Made by a program: the position numbers and the translations under genes. From Escherichia coli (GTDB lineage: Bacteria > Pseudomonadota > Gammaproteobacteria > Enterobacterales > Enterobacteriaceae): DNA of 64,000 nt. The stretch lies in the NCBI RefSeq assembly GCF_024298765.1, contig NZ_CP101210.1; one strand, given 5' to 3'. Shown piece by piece: positions 9,377 through 16,001 of this stretch. The notes below the pieces were generated by a model, which was given only the letters and a program-made list of their open reading frames with translations, made no database searches and was not told where the DNA came from. Each line of letters opens with the position of its first letter. Positions within the stretch are counted from its first letter, which is position 1.

Positions 9377-10297
9377 ATGACGAATCTACCCAAGTTCTCC
9401 ACCGCACTGCTTCATCCGCGTTATTGGTTAACCTGGTTGGGTATTGGCGTACTTTGGTTAGTCGTGCAATTGCCCTACCCGGTTATCTACCGCCTCGGTT
9501 GTGGATTAGGAAAACTTGCGTTACGTTTTATGAAACGACGCGCAAAAATTGTGCATCGCAACCTGGAACTGTGCTTCCCGGAAATGAGCGAACAAGAACG
9601 CCGTAAAATGGTGGTGAAGAATTTCGAATCCGTTGGCATGGGACTGATGGAAACTGGCATGGCGTGGTTCTGGCCGGACCGCAGAATCGCCCGCTGGACG
9701 GAAGTGATCGGCATGGAACACATTCGTGACGTGCAGGCGCAAAAACGCGGCATCCTGTTAGTTGGCATCCATTTTCTGACACTGGAGCTTGGTGCGCGGC
9801 AGTTTGGTATGCAGGAACCGGGGATTGGCGTTTACCGCCCGAACGATAATCCACTGATTGACTGGCTACAAACCTGGGGCCGTTTGCGCTCAAATAAATC
9901 GATGCTCGACCGCAAAGATTTAAAAGGCATGATTAAAGCCCTGAAAAAAGGCGAAGTGGTCTGGTACGCACCGGATCATGATTACGGCCCGCGCTCAAGC
10001 GTTTTCGTCCCGTTGTTTGCCGTTGAGCAGGCTGCGACCACAACCGGAACCTGGATGCTGGCACGGATGTCCGGCGCATGTCTGGTGCCCTTCGTTCCAC
10101 GCCGTAAGCCAGATGGCAAAGGGTATCAGTTGATTATGCTGCCGCCAGAGTGTTCTCCGCCGCTGGATGATGCCGAAACTACCGCCGCGTGGATGAACAA
10201 AGTGGTCGAAAAATGCATCATGATGGCACCAGAGCAGTATATGTGGTTACACCGTCGCTTTAAAACACGCCCGGAAGGCGTTCCTTCACGCTATTAA
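9377..10297 (+). CDS. lpxL: Lipid A biosynthesis lauroyltransferase (306 aa)
   Basis: The internal ATG of ORF 9314..10297 gives [27 protein letters not shown]..., recognised as LpxL/HtrB. Confidence 0.95.
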
Positions 10298-10468
10298 ATC
10301 TCCCATGCCGGATGCTTCAGAAGGGTATCCGGCATTACCACAGCAAATCCCCCTGATTTAGCGATAAAAGCTCTCTGGATTGCGCCCCCTGGAAGTCGGG
10401 CGCATAATTAGTGTGCTTATCTTTTCTTCTTATGTTCACCGCGCCTGGCGCACCAACAGCGGATTGCT

Positions 10469-10650
10469 ATGTCACCCTGTGAAAATGACACCCCTATAAA
10501 CTGGAAACGAAACCTGATCGTCGCCTGGCTAGGCTGTTTTCTTACCGGTGCCGCCTTCAGCCTGGTAATGCCCTTCTTACCCCTCTACGTTGAGCAGCTT
10601 GGCGTTACCGGCCACTCCGCCCTGAATATGTGGTCCGGTATTGTCTTCAG
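10469..10650 (+). pseudogene. mdtG: mdtG 5' fragment (codons 1 to about 61) cut by an insertion
   Basis: [62 protein letters not shown] is the MdtG N-terminus. The frame then reads MGP* in foreign sequence, with the stop at 10664-10666. Confidence 0.93.
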
Positions 10651-10672
10651 TATAATGGGTCCCTAAACACAT
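10628..10672. other. attL junction of the mdtG-borne element
   Basis: The sequence reads host ...ggtattgtcttc, then AG, then element tataatgggtccctaaacac. The arm TCCCTAAACAC (10660-10670) is the inverted partner of GTGTATTTAGGGA at 14933-14945. Confidence 0.75.
10651..10656 (+). promoter_or_regulatory. Consensus -10 hexamer TATAAT at the extreme left end of the element, upstream of the recombinase gene
   Basis: TATAAT lies 34 nt upstream of the ATG at 10690. No good -35 is visible in either the integrated or the reconstructed circular context. Confidence 0.3.
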
Positions 10673-10689
10673 CATTTTAGGTATTGAAT

Positions 10690-12219
10690 ATGAGACGGGC
10701 AATCAGCTACATCAGATTTTCAAGTGAACGACAACTAAAAGGGGACTCTGTACGCAGACAATCTAAGCTGGTCACTGACTGGCTTGATAAGAACCCTGAG
10801 TTTTACTTGGATTCATCCTTGAGCTTTAAAGATTTGGGGAAAAGTGCTTTTAGTGGTAAGCACTTGAAAGGTGGCTTAGGTGACTTTTTAACCGCTATCG
10901 AGAAAGGGCTTGTTAAAGCTGGTGATACACTACTAATCGAGAGTTTAGACCGTCTCTCACGTCAGGATATTGATATTGCTTCTGAGCTATTACGTCGTAT
11001 CTTAAGGGCTGGTGTAGATATAGTCACACTGAGCGATGGTGAACATTACACACGAGAAAGTTTAAAAGACCCGTTATCCCTGATTAAAAGCATTCTGATA
11101 ATGCAGCGGGCGCATGAGGAAAGTCTGAGGAAGTCTGAGCGTGTCCAAGCTGCATGGAACCGTAAAAAAGAACTCATCTCCGAAGGTATCAAGGTATCTA
11201 GGCGTTGTCCTGCATGGTTAAGGCTGAATGATGACCGTCGAACATTCACTATCATCCCCGATAAAGTGGAAGTTGTTAAACGAGCATTTGACCTGAGATT
11301 ACAGGGTTTAAGCTTTTGGGCTATCACCAGAACTTTAAACGATGAAGGCCACTTGTCATTGAATCAATACACACCTAAACAAAAGGGATGGTCTGATACT
11401 GCTGTAAAGAAACTACTCAGAAATCGTGCTGTGATTGGATGTTTCACACCTGCTGGACGTGAAGAAGTTCAGGGTTACTACCCCGCAATAATCAGTGAGT
11501 CACTATTCTATCGAGTACAGCAACTGAACACAGGGCAATATGGTAGGGCTTCTGTATCAAGTAATCCGCTATCAGTCAACTTGTTCAGGGGTATCATCAA
11601 ATGTTCTGAGTGTGGGGCTACTATTGTTCTTGGTGGATATGCCTTAAAACGTTTTGGGATGTACAGATGCCCTAATCGTTCAGCTAACAGGTGTAGTGCA
11701 AAGGCTATCAGTCGTAAGCAAACGGATACAACTATCCTTTACATGCTCGCATTATGCGACCGTTTTGAAACTGAAAATACTGACACTATTGATAGCCTTA
11801 AATTACAGCGTGAAGATTTGCAGCGTAAAATCTCAAAAATGGCAGAACTCGCTATTGAACTCGATGACATGACAATTATCACAGAGAAATTACGTGATAT
11901 GAAGAATGCGCTATCAAAACTCAATCATGATATCGAAGAGGAAACAAAGCGGATAAAGGCCATCACAACTGGAAGCCTCAAAGATATTGACAGGACAACA
12001 AAGGAAGGGATGATAGAGACACAGCTACTTATCAAGGGCGTACTCAAAGAAATAGTTATAGATGCCGCTAAACGTCGCTGTAAAGTGACTTTTCACAACG
12101 GTAAGGTAATTGACCTACCTATAACAGAAAACCCCTCAGAGGACGTTACAGAGGCCATACAGTCGCTTTCTGAAGTCACTGAGAGGGGTTTAATAGATGT
12201 TGATGTAGTAGCGATTTAG
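10690..12219 (+). CDS. Large serine recombinase (integrase), 509 aa from the ATG
   Basis: ORF track 10684..12219. The N-terminal catalytic domain has AISYIRFSSERQ and ESLDRLSRQ motifs. It is followed by a recombinase domain, a Cys4 zinc ribbon (CSECG...CPNRSANRC) and a long coiled coil (LKLQREDLQRKISKMAELAIELDD...). Confidence 0.9.
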   Translation: MRRAISYIRFSSERQLKGDSVRRQSKLVTDWLDKNPEFYLDSSLSFKDLGKSAFSGKHLKGGLGDFLTAIEKGLVKAGDTLLIESLDRLSRQDIDIASELLRRILRAGVDIVTLSDGEHYTRESLKDPLSLIKSILIMQRAHEESLRKSERVQAAWNRKKELISEGIKVSRRCPAWLRLNDDRRTFTIIPDKVEVVKRAFDLRLQGLSFWAITRTLNDEGHLSLNQYTPKQKGWSDTAVKKLLRNRAVIGCFTPAGREEVQGYYPAIISESLFYRVQQLNTGQYGRASVSSNPLSVNLFRGIIKCSECGATIVLGGYALKRFGMYRCPNRSANRCSAKAISRKQTDTTILYMLALCDRFETENTDTIDSLKLQREDLQRKISKMAELAIELDDMTIITEKLRDMKNALSKLNHDIEEETKRIKAITTGSLKDIDRTTKEGMIETQLLIKGVLKEIVIDAAKRRCKVTFHNGKVIDLPITENPSEDVTEAIQSLSEVTERGLIDVDVVAI

Positions 12220-12263
12220 TATCTCTTATTAGGATTCACTGAGTACTTTTTAAGCTTTGAAGC

Positions 12264-12307
12264 TACCCGACCAGCGTTACTGTTAGCATTGGTGAGGTTG
12301 GTTTTTT
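12264..12307 (+). terminator. Candidate intrinsic terminator after the large recombinase gene
   Basis: The imperfect stem ACCCGACCA...TGGTGAGGT (alternatively CCGACC/GGTTGG with a G-U pair) is followed by TTTTTT. Confidence 0.45.
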
Positions 12308-12482
12308 CAGCTTCTTCACAAAAAAGCTTCAGAGGTCTTCTTAACCATCCGCTAAGCAGGAGAGAGGGTGGTACATGAGAAAGAACCCTCACTTCTAAAA
12401 AGATTTTTTAGCTATTTTGCTTAAAACCATATCAAAAGATACATTTTATTGATTCAGGTCAAAGACAAAAGCATTGACAAAA

Positions 12483-12580
12483 TGGTAAAATTGTTCACAT
12501 GACCTTACTTAACAGACTTTTTAAGAGCTTTTGAGAAGCTTGTTGAACAGACACTCTTTCTGGAGTGTTGTCTTTTACTT
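12483..12580 (+). ncRNA. Hypothetical sRNA-like transcription unit of about 80 nt (promoter to terminator)
   Basis: An extended -10 TGGTAAAAT (12483-12491) is followed by the terminator-like hairpin ACAgACACTC tttctg GAGTGTTGT and CTTTTACTT (12547-12580). This is a prediction from sequence only. Confidence 0.2.
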
Positions 12581-12934
12581 AAGAGGTTTGTTTAGATAAC
12601 TCTCAAGGCATCTCTTAAGAATCACTGTTAAGGTGATACTCTCCCTTCGGGTTATATCGTATCTCTTCTCCCGTTAGACAGTTTTTCCTAGCAACTTCAT
12701 AGTTATCTGTCAAGTGCCTTTGAAGATTCCATCAAGACCTCTGAATCTGACCTGATATAGATGCTGTGAAGGCATATTCTCTAGGTCTGTGTAGCTTACT
12801 TAGTGGGAAGAGAGGGATATAGTGACCATAGGGGAACCCCTCCTGTTAAAAAGACTACTTAGAAGTCTGAGACTTTAGTAAAATCTGTGAATATAGCTTC
12901 TCAGACGCTCTGTAACGCATTCTAAGCGATTTTA

Positions 12935-12953
12935 CCACCTTATTTTAAGGTGG
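12935..12953. other. Perfect 7-bp hairpin CCACCTT-atttt-AAGGTGG
   Basis: Read directly from the sequence. It is immediately followed by the second copy of GGGTGGTACAT (12952-12962). Confidence 0.6.
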
Positions 12954-13206
12954 GTGGTACATCCCTATAGGTTACCCTAAAAATGGGGTTAAAACTCGCT
13001 ACAGAGCTTTCTATGAGGCTTGGTAGAGTTGCATAAATTTTACACAACACTTATTCAGCTTCTAAATTTTTTTATAAAAAATCGTAGTAACCCCTCTACA
13101 TTCCCCTTCACCGATAATCTTCAAAAATATCTATCACAGGTCTATACCTGCTAAGTACCCGTCACTACGCCTAAGTGGTCCCCTTTGCAAAATTTTAAAA
13201 TATCTA

Positions 13207-13233
13207 TTGACTTTTTATGTGAACTGTTATAAA
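13207..13233 (+). promoter_or_regulatory. Candidate sigma-70 promoter reading toward the small recombinase
   Basis: TTGACT (13207-13212), a 15-nt spacer, and the extended -10 TGtTATAAA (13225-13233). Confidence 0.4.
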
Positions 13234-13303
13234 GACCGCTCCATCTCTTAGGCATACCGTTATAGCATACTAAAAAGGTATAGCTAACCCCCTGTAAAAA
13301 CCA

Positions 13304-13345
13304 TACCGATTAGCCTTGTAAAACACTTTATCGGTACATTATACT
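13304..13345 (+). promoter_or_regulatory. Inverted repeat overlapping the proximal promoter of the small recombinase (res-like or operator candidate)
   Basis: TACCGAT (13304-13310) and ATCGGTA (13330-13336) are separated by 19 nt. They overlap TTGTAA (13316-13321), an 18-nt spacer and TATACT (13340-13345). A related ATACC-N18-GGTAT lies at 13254-13281. Confidence 0.4.
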
Positions 13346-13380
13346 CAACTCATCAAATGAGTAAGGCAAATGAGTATATT

Positions 13381-13926
13381 ATGGCTAACATTGGTTATAT
13401 CCGAGTTTCATCAATCCAGCAGATTACAGACCGTCAACTTGAAGGGGTCGTACTGGATAAGATATTTACTGATAAAGCATCTGGGAAGAATACAGACCGT
13501 CCACAACTAAAGGCTATGCTCGATTATGTTCGTGAAGGTGATGTTATCCATGTACACGACTTGTCACGTTTAGGGCGCTCTACCGTGGATGTATTAACGC
13601 TGGTGGATAAACTTTCACAGAAAGGTATCAAGGTTCACTTTCACAAAGAAGGTCTGATAACTGGTGACGATAACCCCACGTCTAAGATGATTCTCACAAT
13701 CTTTTCAGCAGTGGCTGAAGCTGAACGTAAAATGATGCTTGAGCGTCAACGAGAAGGCTATGAAGCTGCTAAAGCTGCTGGTCGTGTAGTTGGAAGGGGT
13801 AACGGTAAAGCGGTTGACAGAGAAGGTATTAAAGCTGCTCTTGCTGCTGGTGGTTCAATCGCTAAAGTAGCCGCTCAATTCAACGTTGCCAAGTCAACTG
13901 TACAGCGTATTAAAGCTGAAGATTAA
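13381..13926 (+). CDS. Small serine recombinase of the resolvase/invertase family (181 aa; alternative start at 13357 gives 189 aa)
   Basis: MANIGYIRVSSIQQ carries the catalytic Ser. The protein also has DLSRLGRS and AERKMMLERQREG motifs and a C-terminal HTH (SIAKVAAQFNVAKSTVQRI). The layout matches gamma-delta/Tn3 resolvase and Hin/Gin. Confidence 0.9.
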   Translation: MANIGYIRVSSIQQITDRQLEGVVLDKIFTDKASGKNTDRPQLKAMLDYVREGDVIHVHDLSRLGRSTVDVLTLVDKLSQKGIKVHFHKEGLITGDDNPTSKMILTIFSAVAEAERKMMLERQREGYEAAKAAGRVVGRGNGKAVDREGIKAALAAGGSIAKVAAQFNVAKSTVQRIKAED

Positions 13927-13939
13927 GTCAGGAAATACA

Positions 13940-14623
13940 TTAGATTTTTCTTCCAAATAAACTTGGGAGATTCTTACGGTTTCTTGCTTGCATCATTATT
14001 TCTGGGCTAACAAGTTTTTTTAATTCGCTTCTGTACTCATCAATAGAACACTCATCCGCAACAAGTTTTGAAATCAGGTCTTCAATAGACATAACATCTT
14101 GTTGCAGGAAATCAAGTTCACGAGACAAGTGCTTTTTTTGATTCTCTAACTTTCCTATCTCAGCATTTAAGTTATCTACATCTGTCGCCAATTTCTCTGC
14201 CTGAGATTTCAAATTACTTGTATCTTCTTTTTCTCTTTCGATAAGGTTTTTTTGTTTCTCAATCTTCAACTTTGACGTCAGTCTAGCTGACTCTTCAAGA
14301 TTTTCAGCTTCTACTTTTTGTCTTGCTCGCCATGCGGTTGCCTTGATTTGAAGTAGTGTTACAAGGTTGCTGAAGTAAGGGAAAAAGGTCGCCAAAATGA
14401 ACCCTAGCCCTACGGGATAGCATAATGTTTTTAGATAGAAGTCTTCCGTCGATGTGATTTGTTGAATACGAGTAACAACCGAAGCCTCACTAAGACACAT
14501 GATAGCAATGCTTTTCCAGTTAAATCCCACCCATGACAAAATGATGTAGCCCCATAAAGGGTTAGCTACTCGTTCCTTCAACGCCTGCTTAACTGATTCC
14601 GTGATACTTTCTTCACTACTCAC
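13940..14623 (-). CDS. Hypothetical protein with two TM segments and a coiled coil (227 aa)
   Basis: The GTG start is preceded by GGAG 8 nt upstream. Hydrophobic segments are PLWGYIILSWVGFNWKSIAIMCL and LCYPVGLGFILATFFPYFSNLVTLL. A charged heptad-like region of about 110 aa follows (EAENLEESARLTSKLKIEKQKNLIEREKED...). I do not recognise the family. Confidence 0.7.
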   Translation of the reverse strand: MSSEESITESVKQALKERVANPLWGYIILSWVGFNWKSIAIMCLSEASVVTRIQQITSTEDFYLKTLCYPVGLGFILATFFPYFSNLVTLLQIKATAWRARQKVEAENLEESARLTSKLKIEKQKNLIEREKEDTSNLKSQAEKLATDVDNLNAEIGKLENQKKHLSRELDFLQQDVMSIEDLISKLVADECSIDEYRSELKKLVSPEIMMQARNRKNLPSLFGRKI

Positions 14624-14893
14624 AATTACTGCTCCATAGAAAACTCTGGTTTGAGAAATTTTAATGCGAATCCAATCAGTTAGATAGACCTGTAAATAGC
14701 AATTTTATAGAAGTCGAGAGAGGGATGACTAACACCCTGCATAGTTTCCTGAAAAGAGACTTCGCATATTATCTATATATTTCAATAAGTTATGCTAAAA
14801 AGGAACTATACCAATACTGCATAGATTCTGCGTAAAACTGCTTGGATACTTGGAAATCCACCATTAAATTGCATAGTCATTCACCTGATAAAG

Positions 14894-14908
14894 CCTGTTA
14901 TTAACAGG
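14894..14908. other. Perfect 15-bp palindrome CCTGTTATTAACAGG near the right end of the element
   Basis: Read directly from the sequence. It is nested within TCACCTG (14881-14887) and CAGGTGA (14905-14911). Confidence 0.6.
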
Positions 14909-14932
14909 TGATAGGATTCGGATGTTCTCATA

Positions 14933-14980
14933 GTGTATTTAGGGAATTAATATCAGCATTACATTTTTATTTTCGGCCAT
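14933..14980. other. attR junction of the mdtG-borne element
   Basis: The sequence reads element GTGTATTTAGGGAATTAATATC, then AG, then host cattacatttttattttcggcc, which resumes MdtG as (S)[15 protein letters not shown]. Confidence 0.75.
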
Positions 14981-16001
14981 CGCCTCACCGTTTTGGGGTG
15001 GACTCGCCGACCGTAAAGGCCGAAAACTCATGCTATTACGCTCTGCCCTCGGCATGGGCATCGTGATGGTGTTGATGGGACTGGCACAAAATATCTGGCA
15101 GTTTTTGATCCTGCGGGCGCTTCTTGGGTTACTTGGCGGATTTGTCCCCAACGCTAATGCTCTTATCGCCACACAAGTACCGCGTAATAAAAGCGGCTGG
15201 GCGCTGGGTACGCTCTCCACAGGCGGCGTTAGTGGTGCGTTGCTCGGCCCAATGGCTGGCGGCCTGCTCGCCGATAGCTACGGCTTACGTCCGGTATTCT
15301 TTATTACCGCCAGTGTGCTCATACTCTGCTTTTTCGTCACCCTGTTCTGCATCAGAGAAAAATTCCAGCCGGTCAGCAAAAAAGAGATGCTGCACATGCG
15401 GGAAGTGGTGACATCACTTAAAAACCCGAAACTGGTACTCAGCCTGTTTGTCACCACGTTAATCATCCAGGTGGCGACAGGCTCAATTGCCCCCATTCTG
15501 ACGCTGTATGTCCGCGAACTGGCGGGTAACGTCAGTAACGTCGCCTTTATCAGTGGCATGATCGCCTCGGTGCCAGGCGTGGCGGCTCTGCTAAGCGCAC
15601 CACGACTCGGCAAACTTGGCGATCGAATCGGACCCGAAAAGATCCTGATTACAGCGCTGATCTTTTCTGTACTGCTGTTGATCCCAATGTCTTACGTTCA
15701 GACGCCATTGCAACTTGGGATTTTACGTTTTTTGCTCGGTGCCGCCGATGGTGCACTACTCCCCGCCGTACAGACACTGTTGGTTTACAACTCGAGCAAC
15801 CAGATCGCCGGGCGTATCTTCAGCTATAACCAATCGTTTCGTGATATTGGCAACGTTACCGGACCATTGATGGGAGCAGCGATTTCAGCGAACTACGGTT
15901 TCAGAGCGGTATTTCTCGTCACCGCTGGCGTCGTGTTATTCAACGCAGTCTATTCATGGAACAGTCTACGTCGTCGTCGAATACCCCAGGTATCGAACTG
16001 A
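14957..16001 (+). pseudogene. mdtG: mdtG 3' fragment (codon 61 to the stop)
   Basis: The frame reads [38 protein letters not shown]... and runs to the stop at 16001. ORF-track entry 15030..16001 is its internal-Met portion. Confidence 0.93.

Follow-up and report, generated by a model that had tools for sequence, protein, structure and literature searches.

A large serine recombinase gene directly beside its att site in mdtG of Escherichia coli, and its predicted transcription from the host gene

The 64-kb stretch of Escherichia coli DNA analysed here (the window) covers the lpxL-mdtG region, in which the efflux-pump gene mdtG is split by a 4.3-kb element (10651-14956). The mdtG start codon lies at 10469, its frame is interrupted after residue 60 and the gene resumes near 14957. 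The first gene of the element encodes a large serine recombinase (LSR), the integrase, as an open reading frame (ORF) of 509 aa. Its ATG, at 10690, lies on the same strand as mdtG, 221 nt downstream of the mdtG ATG and 39 nt from the first element base (10651), and the same start is given by the Prokaryotic Genome Annotation Pipeline (PGAP)/RefSeq annotation of an identical copy. The element opens with the hexamer TATAAT (10651-10656), 33 nt upstream of the recombinase ATG. A first-pass annotation of this DNA had set the hexamer, the ATG and the element start at these positions, which the sequence and a comparison with K-12 mdtG bear out, and had seen no space for a -35 box within the element, with which the geometry agrees. 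It had also held that the recombinase promoter must span the junction, a conclusion that does not follow, as read-through from upstream needs no promoter there. We favour, at a probability of roughly 0.6, the reading that in the integrated state the integrase is transcribed mainly by such read-through from the host mdtG promoter and has no promoter region of its own.

The position of the joint was derived from a comparison of attB, attL and attR. Uninterrupted K-12 mdtG reads gtcttcAGcattacattt at the insertion site, which gives attB as gtcttcAGcattac. The attL of the window reads gtcttcAGtataat, or gtcttcAGtataatggg in a longer reading, and its attR reads aatatcAGcattac, or aatatcAGcattacattt; the core common to attL and attR relative to K-12 mdtG is TCAG (10647-10650 and 14953-14956). 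In strain PK6 (locus L015), whose recombinase is 76% identical, attL and attR have only AG in common, and the central dinucleotide is therefore placed at 10649-10650. AG is also the symmetry centre of the attP rebuilt from the attL and attR of the window, GTGTATTTA-N13-AG-N13-TAAACACAT, for which the predicted joint is aatatcAGtataat. A crossover at AT, which would turn TATAAT into a hybrid of host and element sequence, was ruled out by K-12 mdtG, which reads AGC ATT ACA. The sites have the features of a large serine recombinase system, namely an imperfect inverted repeat with a 2-bp centre, a short core and no target-site duplication. On these comparisons, 10649-10692 is identified as the attL joint of an LSR element in mdtG, and is read as consisting of the central AG, a 22-bp P' half-site, a leader of 17 nt whose ribosome-binding site is weak, and the ATG of the integrase.

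The same geometry recurs in the relatives of the element, some of which occupy mdtG and others a second gene, yecE, and is common to five lineages. When right ends are joined to left ends, the window lineage, L002 and L013 (yecE type) all give an attP of the form GTGTATTTA-N13-NN-N13-TAAATACAC, with AG at the centre in the mdtG types and TT in the yecE types. The attP of L015 fits this geometry with a degenerate outer motif on the P arm, GTGCATTAA, and L016 and L018, for which the P' arm alone is available, fit it as well. For the yecE type, the 30-nt pattern reconstructed for the attP joint has an exact match in a metagenome contig (L023; ERZ1090866 NODE-760, 11,473 bp; joint at 2950-2979), which is a circularly permuted yecE-type element whose right end runs straight into its left end, without yecE flanks. 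This contig is in silico evidence for an excised or replicating form of the yecE-type element, and, since the predicted attP was found there base for base, the element family is taken to excise.

Promoters were scored throughout with a simple sigma-70 position weight matrix (PWM), in bits, so that all promoter scores are in silico values. The candidate mdtG promoter (Table 1) reaches 7.92 bits, close to the 7.74 bits of the junction site that includes TATAAT. On the + strand, terminator-like sites are limited to one at 10398-10418, ahead of where transcription probably starts, and one at 12550-12569, beyond the integrase gene; the interval between 10418 and 12550 has none. The leader offers no sign of RNA structure or an attenuator, as its folding is matched by that of shuffled sequence (z = -0.3 and -0.07) and it has no Rfam match. 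The truncated mdtG frame runs to a TAA stop at 10664-10666, supplied by the outer att motif, and is followed by 23 untranslated nt and then the recombinase ATG. Read-through is considered most likely because the two frames are co-oriented, no terminator lies between them and only these 23 nt separate them; and since the recombinase-binding site runs almost to the ribosome-binding site, no private promoter region would be left to the integrase. The proposal of the first-pass annotation that recombinase expression depends on context stands in part: context dependence and read-through from mdtG are compatible with this layout, and a junction promoter on the circle, which scores lower, is not supported.

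Under the favoured reading, the integrase gene would ride as a passenger of the mdtG 5' fragment on transcripts from the host mdtG promoter, to which weak -35-independent initiation at TATAAT might add. PMC12046405, on the authority of Fabrega 2010, assigns mdtG to the SoxRS, MarRAB and Rob regulons, and integrase levels would be expected to follow these regulons. By binding to attL, the integrase would occlude 10627-10672 and TATAAT with it, from which negative feedback is predicted. On the excised circle, TATAAT would face the outer motif of the P arm (TGTATT) and gain no better -35, leaving read-through out of the right end as the one source of extra expression. The central dinucleotide falls at codon positions 1-2 in both target genes, and five codons past the crossover the host frame is therefore closed by the TAA of the conserved outer motif TAAATACAC (at 10664-10666 in the window, and also in the attL of L013, L015 and L016). 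The chance that the two target genes share a codon phase is about 1 in 3.

Table 1. Features of the interrupted mdtG locus, in window coordinates
Feature	Position	Strand	Description and basis
Candidate mdtG promoter	10380-10408	+	TTGCGC and CATAAT with a 17-nt spacer, some 60 nt before the mdtG ATG; PWM 7.92 bits, best in 10280-10700; prediction
Truncated mdtG frame	10469-10666	+	MdtG residues 1-60 plus 5 element-encoded residues; tblastn against MdtG, ORF list, K-12 comparison
Central crossover dinucleotide AG of attL	10649-10650	+	Inside the TCAG core 10647-10650; attB/attL/attR comparison
P' half-site of attP	10651-10672	+	13 inner nt TATAATGGGTCCC and outer motif TAAACACAT; TATAAT is its first six bases; half-site table across lineages
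Leader	10673-10689	+	17 nt; weak Shine-Dalgarno-like AGGT at 10679-10682; sequence
Large serine recombinase (integrase)	10690-12219	+	509 aa, intact; Pfam Resolvase, Recombinase, Zn_ribbon_recom
Remnant of Dit-like tail/baseplate gene 3' end	12216-12392	-	Left edge of the internal deletion; C-terminal ...SVNPNKRY matches Dit-like proteins of relatives
Small serine recombinase (resolvase/invertase type)	13357-13926	+	Right-end cargo; Pfam Resolvase 2.8e-37
Coiled-coil hypothetical protein	13940-14623	-	227 aa, cargo; weak Pfam/PADLOC matches only
Conserved right-end region	14679-14932	+	blastn 77-83% identity to L002, L012, L013 (mdtG- and yecE-type relatives); alignment
P half-site at attR with central AG (14955-14956)	14933-14956	+	Outer motif GTGTATTTA, 13 inner nt GGGAATTAATATC
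mdtG 3' part	14957-16001	+	Residue 61 to stop; tblastn 99.4% identity; RefSeq annotation of an identical copy

Several points weigh against read-through as the main source of integrase. The candidate mdtG promoter is a PWM prediction and may be close to silent without MarA, SoxS or Rob. TATAAT is retained in L015, and its counterpart is TATTAT in L016, an E. albertii lineage whose LSR is 87% identical, so that the hexamer may have a real promoter role, or a dual one, beside its function in the att site. Co-orientation with the target gene was considered as a rule of the family and rejected, as just two independent sites are involved and a distant LSR group in yecE (44-47% identity) is reversed. 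In addition, no mdtG-type attP joint was found in viral or metagenome contig collections, and the 4.3-kb remnant, in which no candidate for a directionality factor was identified, may have lost that factor and be immobile.

The retention of the hexamer also counts in favour of a rival in which TATAAT is a working sigma-70 -10 box, weak and without a usable -35, that acts alike in attL and attP and would give low, constitutive, context-independent expression, perhaps under autorepression. The hexamer is a perfect match to the -10 consensus, its distance from the ATG would leave a leader of about 27 nt with the AGGT motif, and the junction site is among the top 0.14% of window positions by PWM total; TATAAT occurs just 13 times on both strands of the 64-kb window. 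Against such a promoter, 14% of the ORFs of at least 150 aa in the window have an upstream site scoring at least as high, and the -35 is poor in every context. In attL the best candidate, ATGTGG at a 17-bp spacing, matches at two of six positions; on the circle TGTATT (14934-14939), 17 bp upstream of TATAAT, matches TTGACA equally poorly, as does the alternative GTGTAT. The first-pass annotation had likewise judged the -35 candidates of both the chromosome and the circle to be poor. TATAAT has no TG extension, and a separate sigma-70 promoter scan did not list the junction site.

The conservation of the hexamer is also limited. It reads TATAAT in L015, but the Pluralibacter lineage has GATTAC and the yecE type has TATTAG, and the critical T at -10 position 6 is thus missing from the P' hexamer of two of five lineages. 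As the next 14 bases are identical at 9 of 14 positions between the window and L015, the six matches out of six at TATAAT do not amount to significant conservation. In the half-site table, the corresponding position of the mirror arm reads GATATT, CATATA or AATCAT, and in attB it reads CATTAC or AATCAC; most tabulated arms, of attP and attB alike, share an 'nAT' at the inner half-site position. Because the hexamer occupies the inner position of the P' half-site and like sequences stand on the other arms, its resemblance to a -10 box can be explained without a promoter. In the simplest reading, this resemblance is a predicted by-product of an AT-rich inner att motif and is largely accounted for by the att site. 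For these reasons we regard a -10-only promoter as possible and rather unlikely. A much stronger candidate is found in the yecE types, in which the ATG lies about 70 nt from the att centre: the promoter-like TTTAAA-N17-TACAAT, which scores 10.57 bits and ranks in the top 0.01%, is shared by seven loci of E. coli, E. albertii and Citrobacter as a conserved site, and has its -35, TTTAAA, inside the outer att motif. The mdtG types have no room for a site of this kind, and the window lineage lacks it.

The excised circle was considered as another place where a promoter might be assembled. The P half-site proper spans 14933-14954 and holds TGTATT, the -35 candidate of the circle. A switch of the Tn4451 type, in which a strong promoter exists on the excised circle only (its -35 contributed by the right end and its -10 by the left) and integrase is made mainly after excision for re-integration, would suit the layout, in which the LSR gene is the outermost gene of the element and points inward. 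The family does have excised joints, and a precedent is offered by Tn4451 (Lyras & Rood 2000, known here by a title cited in PMC13023037). Neither a near-consensus -35 nor a strong promoter is found on the circle, however: both -35 candidates lie inside an outer att motif that is constrained by recombinase recognition, and the reconstructed joint scores 6.74 bits, below the 7.74 bits of attL. The same order is seen in L002, L012 and L015. The 400 nt at the right end contain no strong conserved promoter facing outward, the best being TAGATA/TTGGAT..TAAATT at 7.4-8.6 bits. The circle promoter proposed by the first-pass annotation on the model of Tn4451 thus finds no support, and we consider this arrangement highly improbable.

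The integrase gene itself is intact. PF00239, PF07508 and PF13408 all score above their curated cut-offs, as expected of an LSR, and the N-terminal IRFSSERQ motif (R9-F-S11-S-E-R-Q15; the R-x-S-x-x-x-Q catalytic serine motif) is invariant in an alignment of relatives. The ORF is identical to a protein annotated as 'recombinase family protein', whose identical-protein cluster comprises 954 member sequences. The rest of the element is reduced. It aligns to its full-length relatives at its two ends only (10640-12315 and 14679-14970), with homology to L002 ending at 12315, just the last residues of the Dit-like gene are retained, and some 8 kb of the ancestral element are deleted. From these alignments, the 4.3-kb element is recognized as an internal-deletion derivative of a phage-like family of about 12 kb that occupies mdtG or yecE.

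A loss on this scale raises the question of whether the integrase is a decaying passenger without any selected expression signal, with 10651-10689 a fossil att sequence. The rarity of the full 4.3-kb element at the mdtG site, in just six of 5,426 complete E. coli genomes plus two records of one further strain (76% coverage), would fit an inert remnant, as would the size of the deletion and the lack of a mdtG-type attP joint in the contig collections mentioned above. The full-length ORF with its intact catalytic motif, the family geometry kept in both att half-sites and the size of the identical-protein cluster argue in the opposite direction, and make this explanation improbable in our judgement.

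Between its conserved ends, the element carries varied material. About 1.1 kb (12393-13356) is without a convincing gene. The small serine recombinase that follows has an HTH_7 match of 22.1 bits (E 1.7e-4), under the curated cut-off of 23.8, and the 227-aa protein gives weak coiled-coil/SMC-like matches in Pfam and PADLOC, all under the curated Pfam cut-offs. Right-end cargo varies across the family (12393-14623 in the window compared with L002, L012, L013, L015 and L023). The window, L002, L015, probably L023 and, with reversed strand, L012 have unrelated small serine recombinases as cargo, and L013 carries an AP2/ERF-type protein in place of one. In the conserved right-end region, the motif YKCATAG occurs four times on the + strand within 196 bp (14738-14933), three times as TGCATAG and once as CTCATAG, about 0.03 being expected at the window-wide rate; the CTCATAG copy (14927-14933) extends into the P arm. 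Of the four, the last three are kept in mdtG- and yecE-type relatives, and the first (14738) is common to L012 only. These copies may be binding sites for an accessory factor.

Other genomes carry an element of 11.6-15 kb at the mdtG site, with the same recombinase and the same ends. The family of about 12 kb occupies mdtG in some 25 of the 5,426 complete E. coli genomes and also occurs in E. albertii, Citrobacter and Pluralibacter. In 279 of the 5,426, yecE is occupied by a sister element whose recombinase is about 68% identical. Full-length relatives measure 11.6-12.1 kb and share one gene order in mdtG and yecE (for example L013:19930-32104 and L002:20350-32003). At the left end the LSR gene points inward, and the right end has a variable cargo gene. 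The remaining shared genes, on the other strand, encode Dit-like tail and tape-measure proteins, several unknowns, a replication-initiator-like protein and a Dam methylase. Capsid and terminase genes are absent, and the family may be satellite-like, since it is too small and too uniform for random prophage decay.

A scan of genome contigs for the recombinase returned three loci only, those of Escherichia or Shigella and one on a short contig labelled Mycobacterium sp. (L010; NZ_LMVQ01000531.1, 548 bp). This contig encodes the N-terminus of the enterobacterial LSR described here (83% identity) and is probably a contamination of the Mycobacterium assembly. The distant LSR group mentioned above (44-47% identity; Pectobacterium, Cronobacter and E. 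coli) uses the same yecE position in the opposite orientation (L020, L021 and L022, at about 2440-2500). It has no Dit or tape-measure neighbours, and its P' arm starts with the -10-like GATAAT or GATTAC. In an IMG/VR contig (L005:4205-5948), yecE is occupied twice: an element with a tyrosine integrase replaces the yecE 5' end, and the LSR element lies about 490 bp further downstream.

In practice, attB, attP, the central dinucleotides and the conserved half-site motif are now defined for an uncharacterised LSR family of E. coli that has mdtG and yecE as its two natural targets, which may interest collectors of orthogonal serine integrases. A search of the literature on mdtG or yecE with a serine recombinase returned nothing specific to this element family; earlier LSR cases were not surveyed. 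As a promoter finding, the result amounts to a prediction of a known type. If read-through is true, it would add another mobile element that borrows the promoter of the gene it disrupts, with an enterobacterial LSR as the example, and would tie the recombinase level to the Mar/Sox/Rob stress regulons. LSR prophage switches are known in comK, sigK and spsM. A similar, stress-coupled switch can be imagined here, wired through the promoter of the target gene itself: the mdtG promoter, under MarA, SoxS or Rob, would drive the integrase, and stress from antibiotics or oxidants, acting along with a directionality factor, would trigger precise excision and rebuild mdtG. We consider such a reversible switch very unlikely.

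The layout of an integrase gene abutting its att site is already known from other mobile elements, and no special junction promoter is evident here. Like serine integrases of the phiC31/Bxb1 type, the recombinase combines Resolvase, Recombinase and zinc-ribbon domains and leaves no target duplication, and its attP is an imperfect inverted repeat of about 46 bp with a non-palindromic 2-bp centre, paired with a short attB that shares little beyond the core. It differs from them in that its att sequences are family-specific and that it is not close to any integrase of the phage collection, in which no intact phage carries this integrase and the closest proteins, which are YbcK-like and come from lambdoid phages, reach 37% identity. 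As in Tn4451/Tn4453 with their TnpX recombinase, the LSR gene lies at the extreme end of the element, reads inward, and has upstream sequence that differs between the integrated and the circular state. The Tn4451 circle reportedly assembles a good -35/-10 pair, whereas the joint described here scores below attL with a -35 matching at two of six positions, and the element is a site-specific phage-like integrant and not a transposon.

State-dependent integrase promoters have been described for ICEKp1 and ICEclc, and integrated ICEKp1 relies on the host tRNA-Asn promoter to express its integrase (PMC13023037). The window offers the same arrangement, with an integrase beside the att site, downstream of a co-oriented (predicted) host promoter and with no intervening terminator; in ICEKp1 it is the host promoter that supplies the integrated-state transcripts. 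ICEKp1 has a tyrosine integrase, inserts at tRNA-Asn and possesses a demonstrated 3'-end promoter for the excised state, whereas here an LSR sits in a disrupted coding gene, no convincing right-end promoter is found and the host-driven transcription is predicted only. In KplE1, the attL region overlaps the promoter of the integrase gene intS, which is regulated by its own product (PMC2951348). As in KplE1 intS and related prophage integrases, the recombinase-binding sites of the window overlap the sequence from which the integrase must be transcribed: in silico, TATAAT, a candidate promoter element only, is the inner part of the P' half-site. KplE1 differs in that its integrase is of the tyrosine type, with arm-type sites, and its promoter has been mapped, as opposed to an LSR half-site and a hypothetical promoter here. 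Given this overlap between the recombinase sites and the region upstream of the integrase, negative autoregulation is predicted for the mdtG element too.

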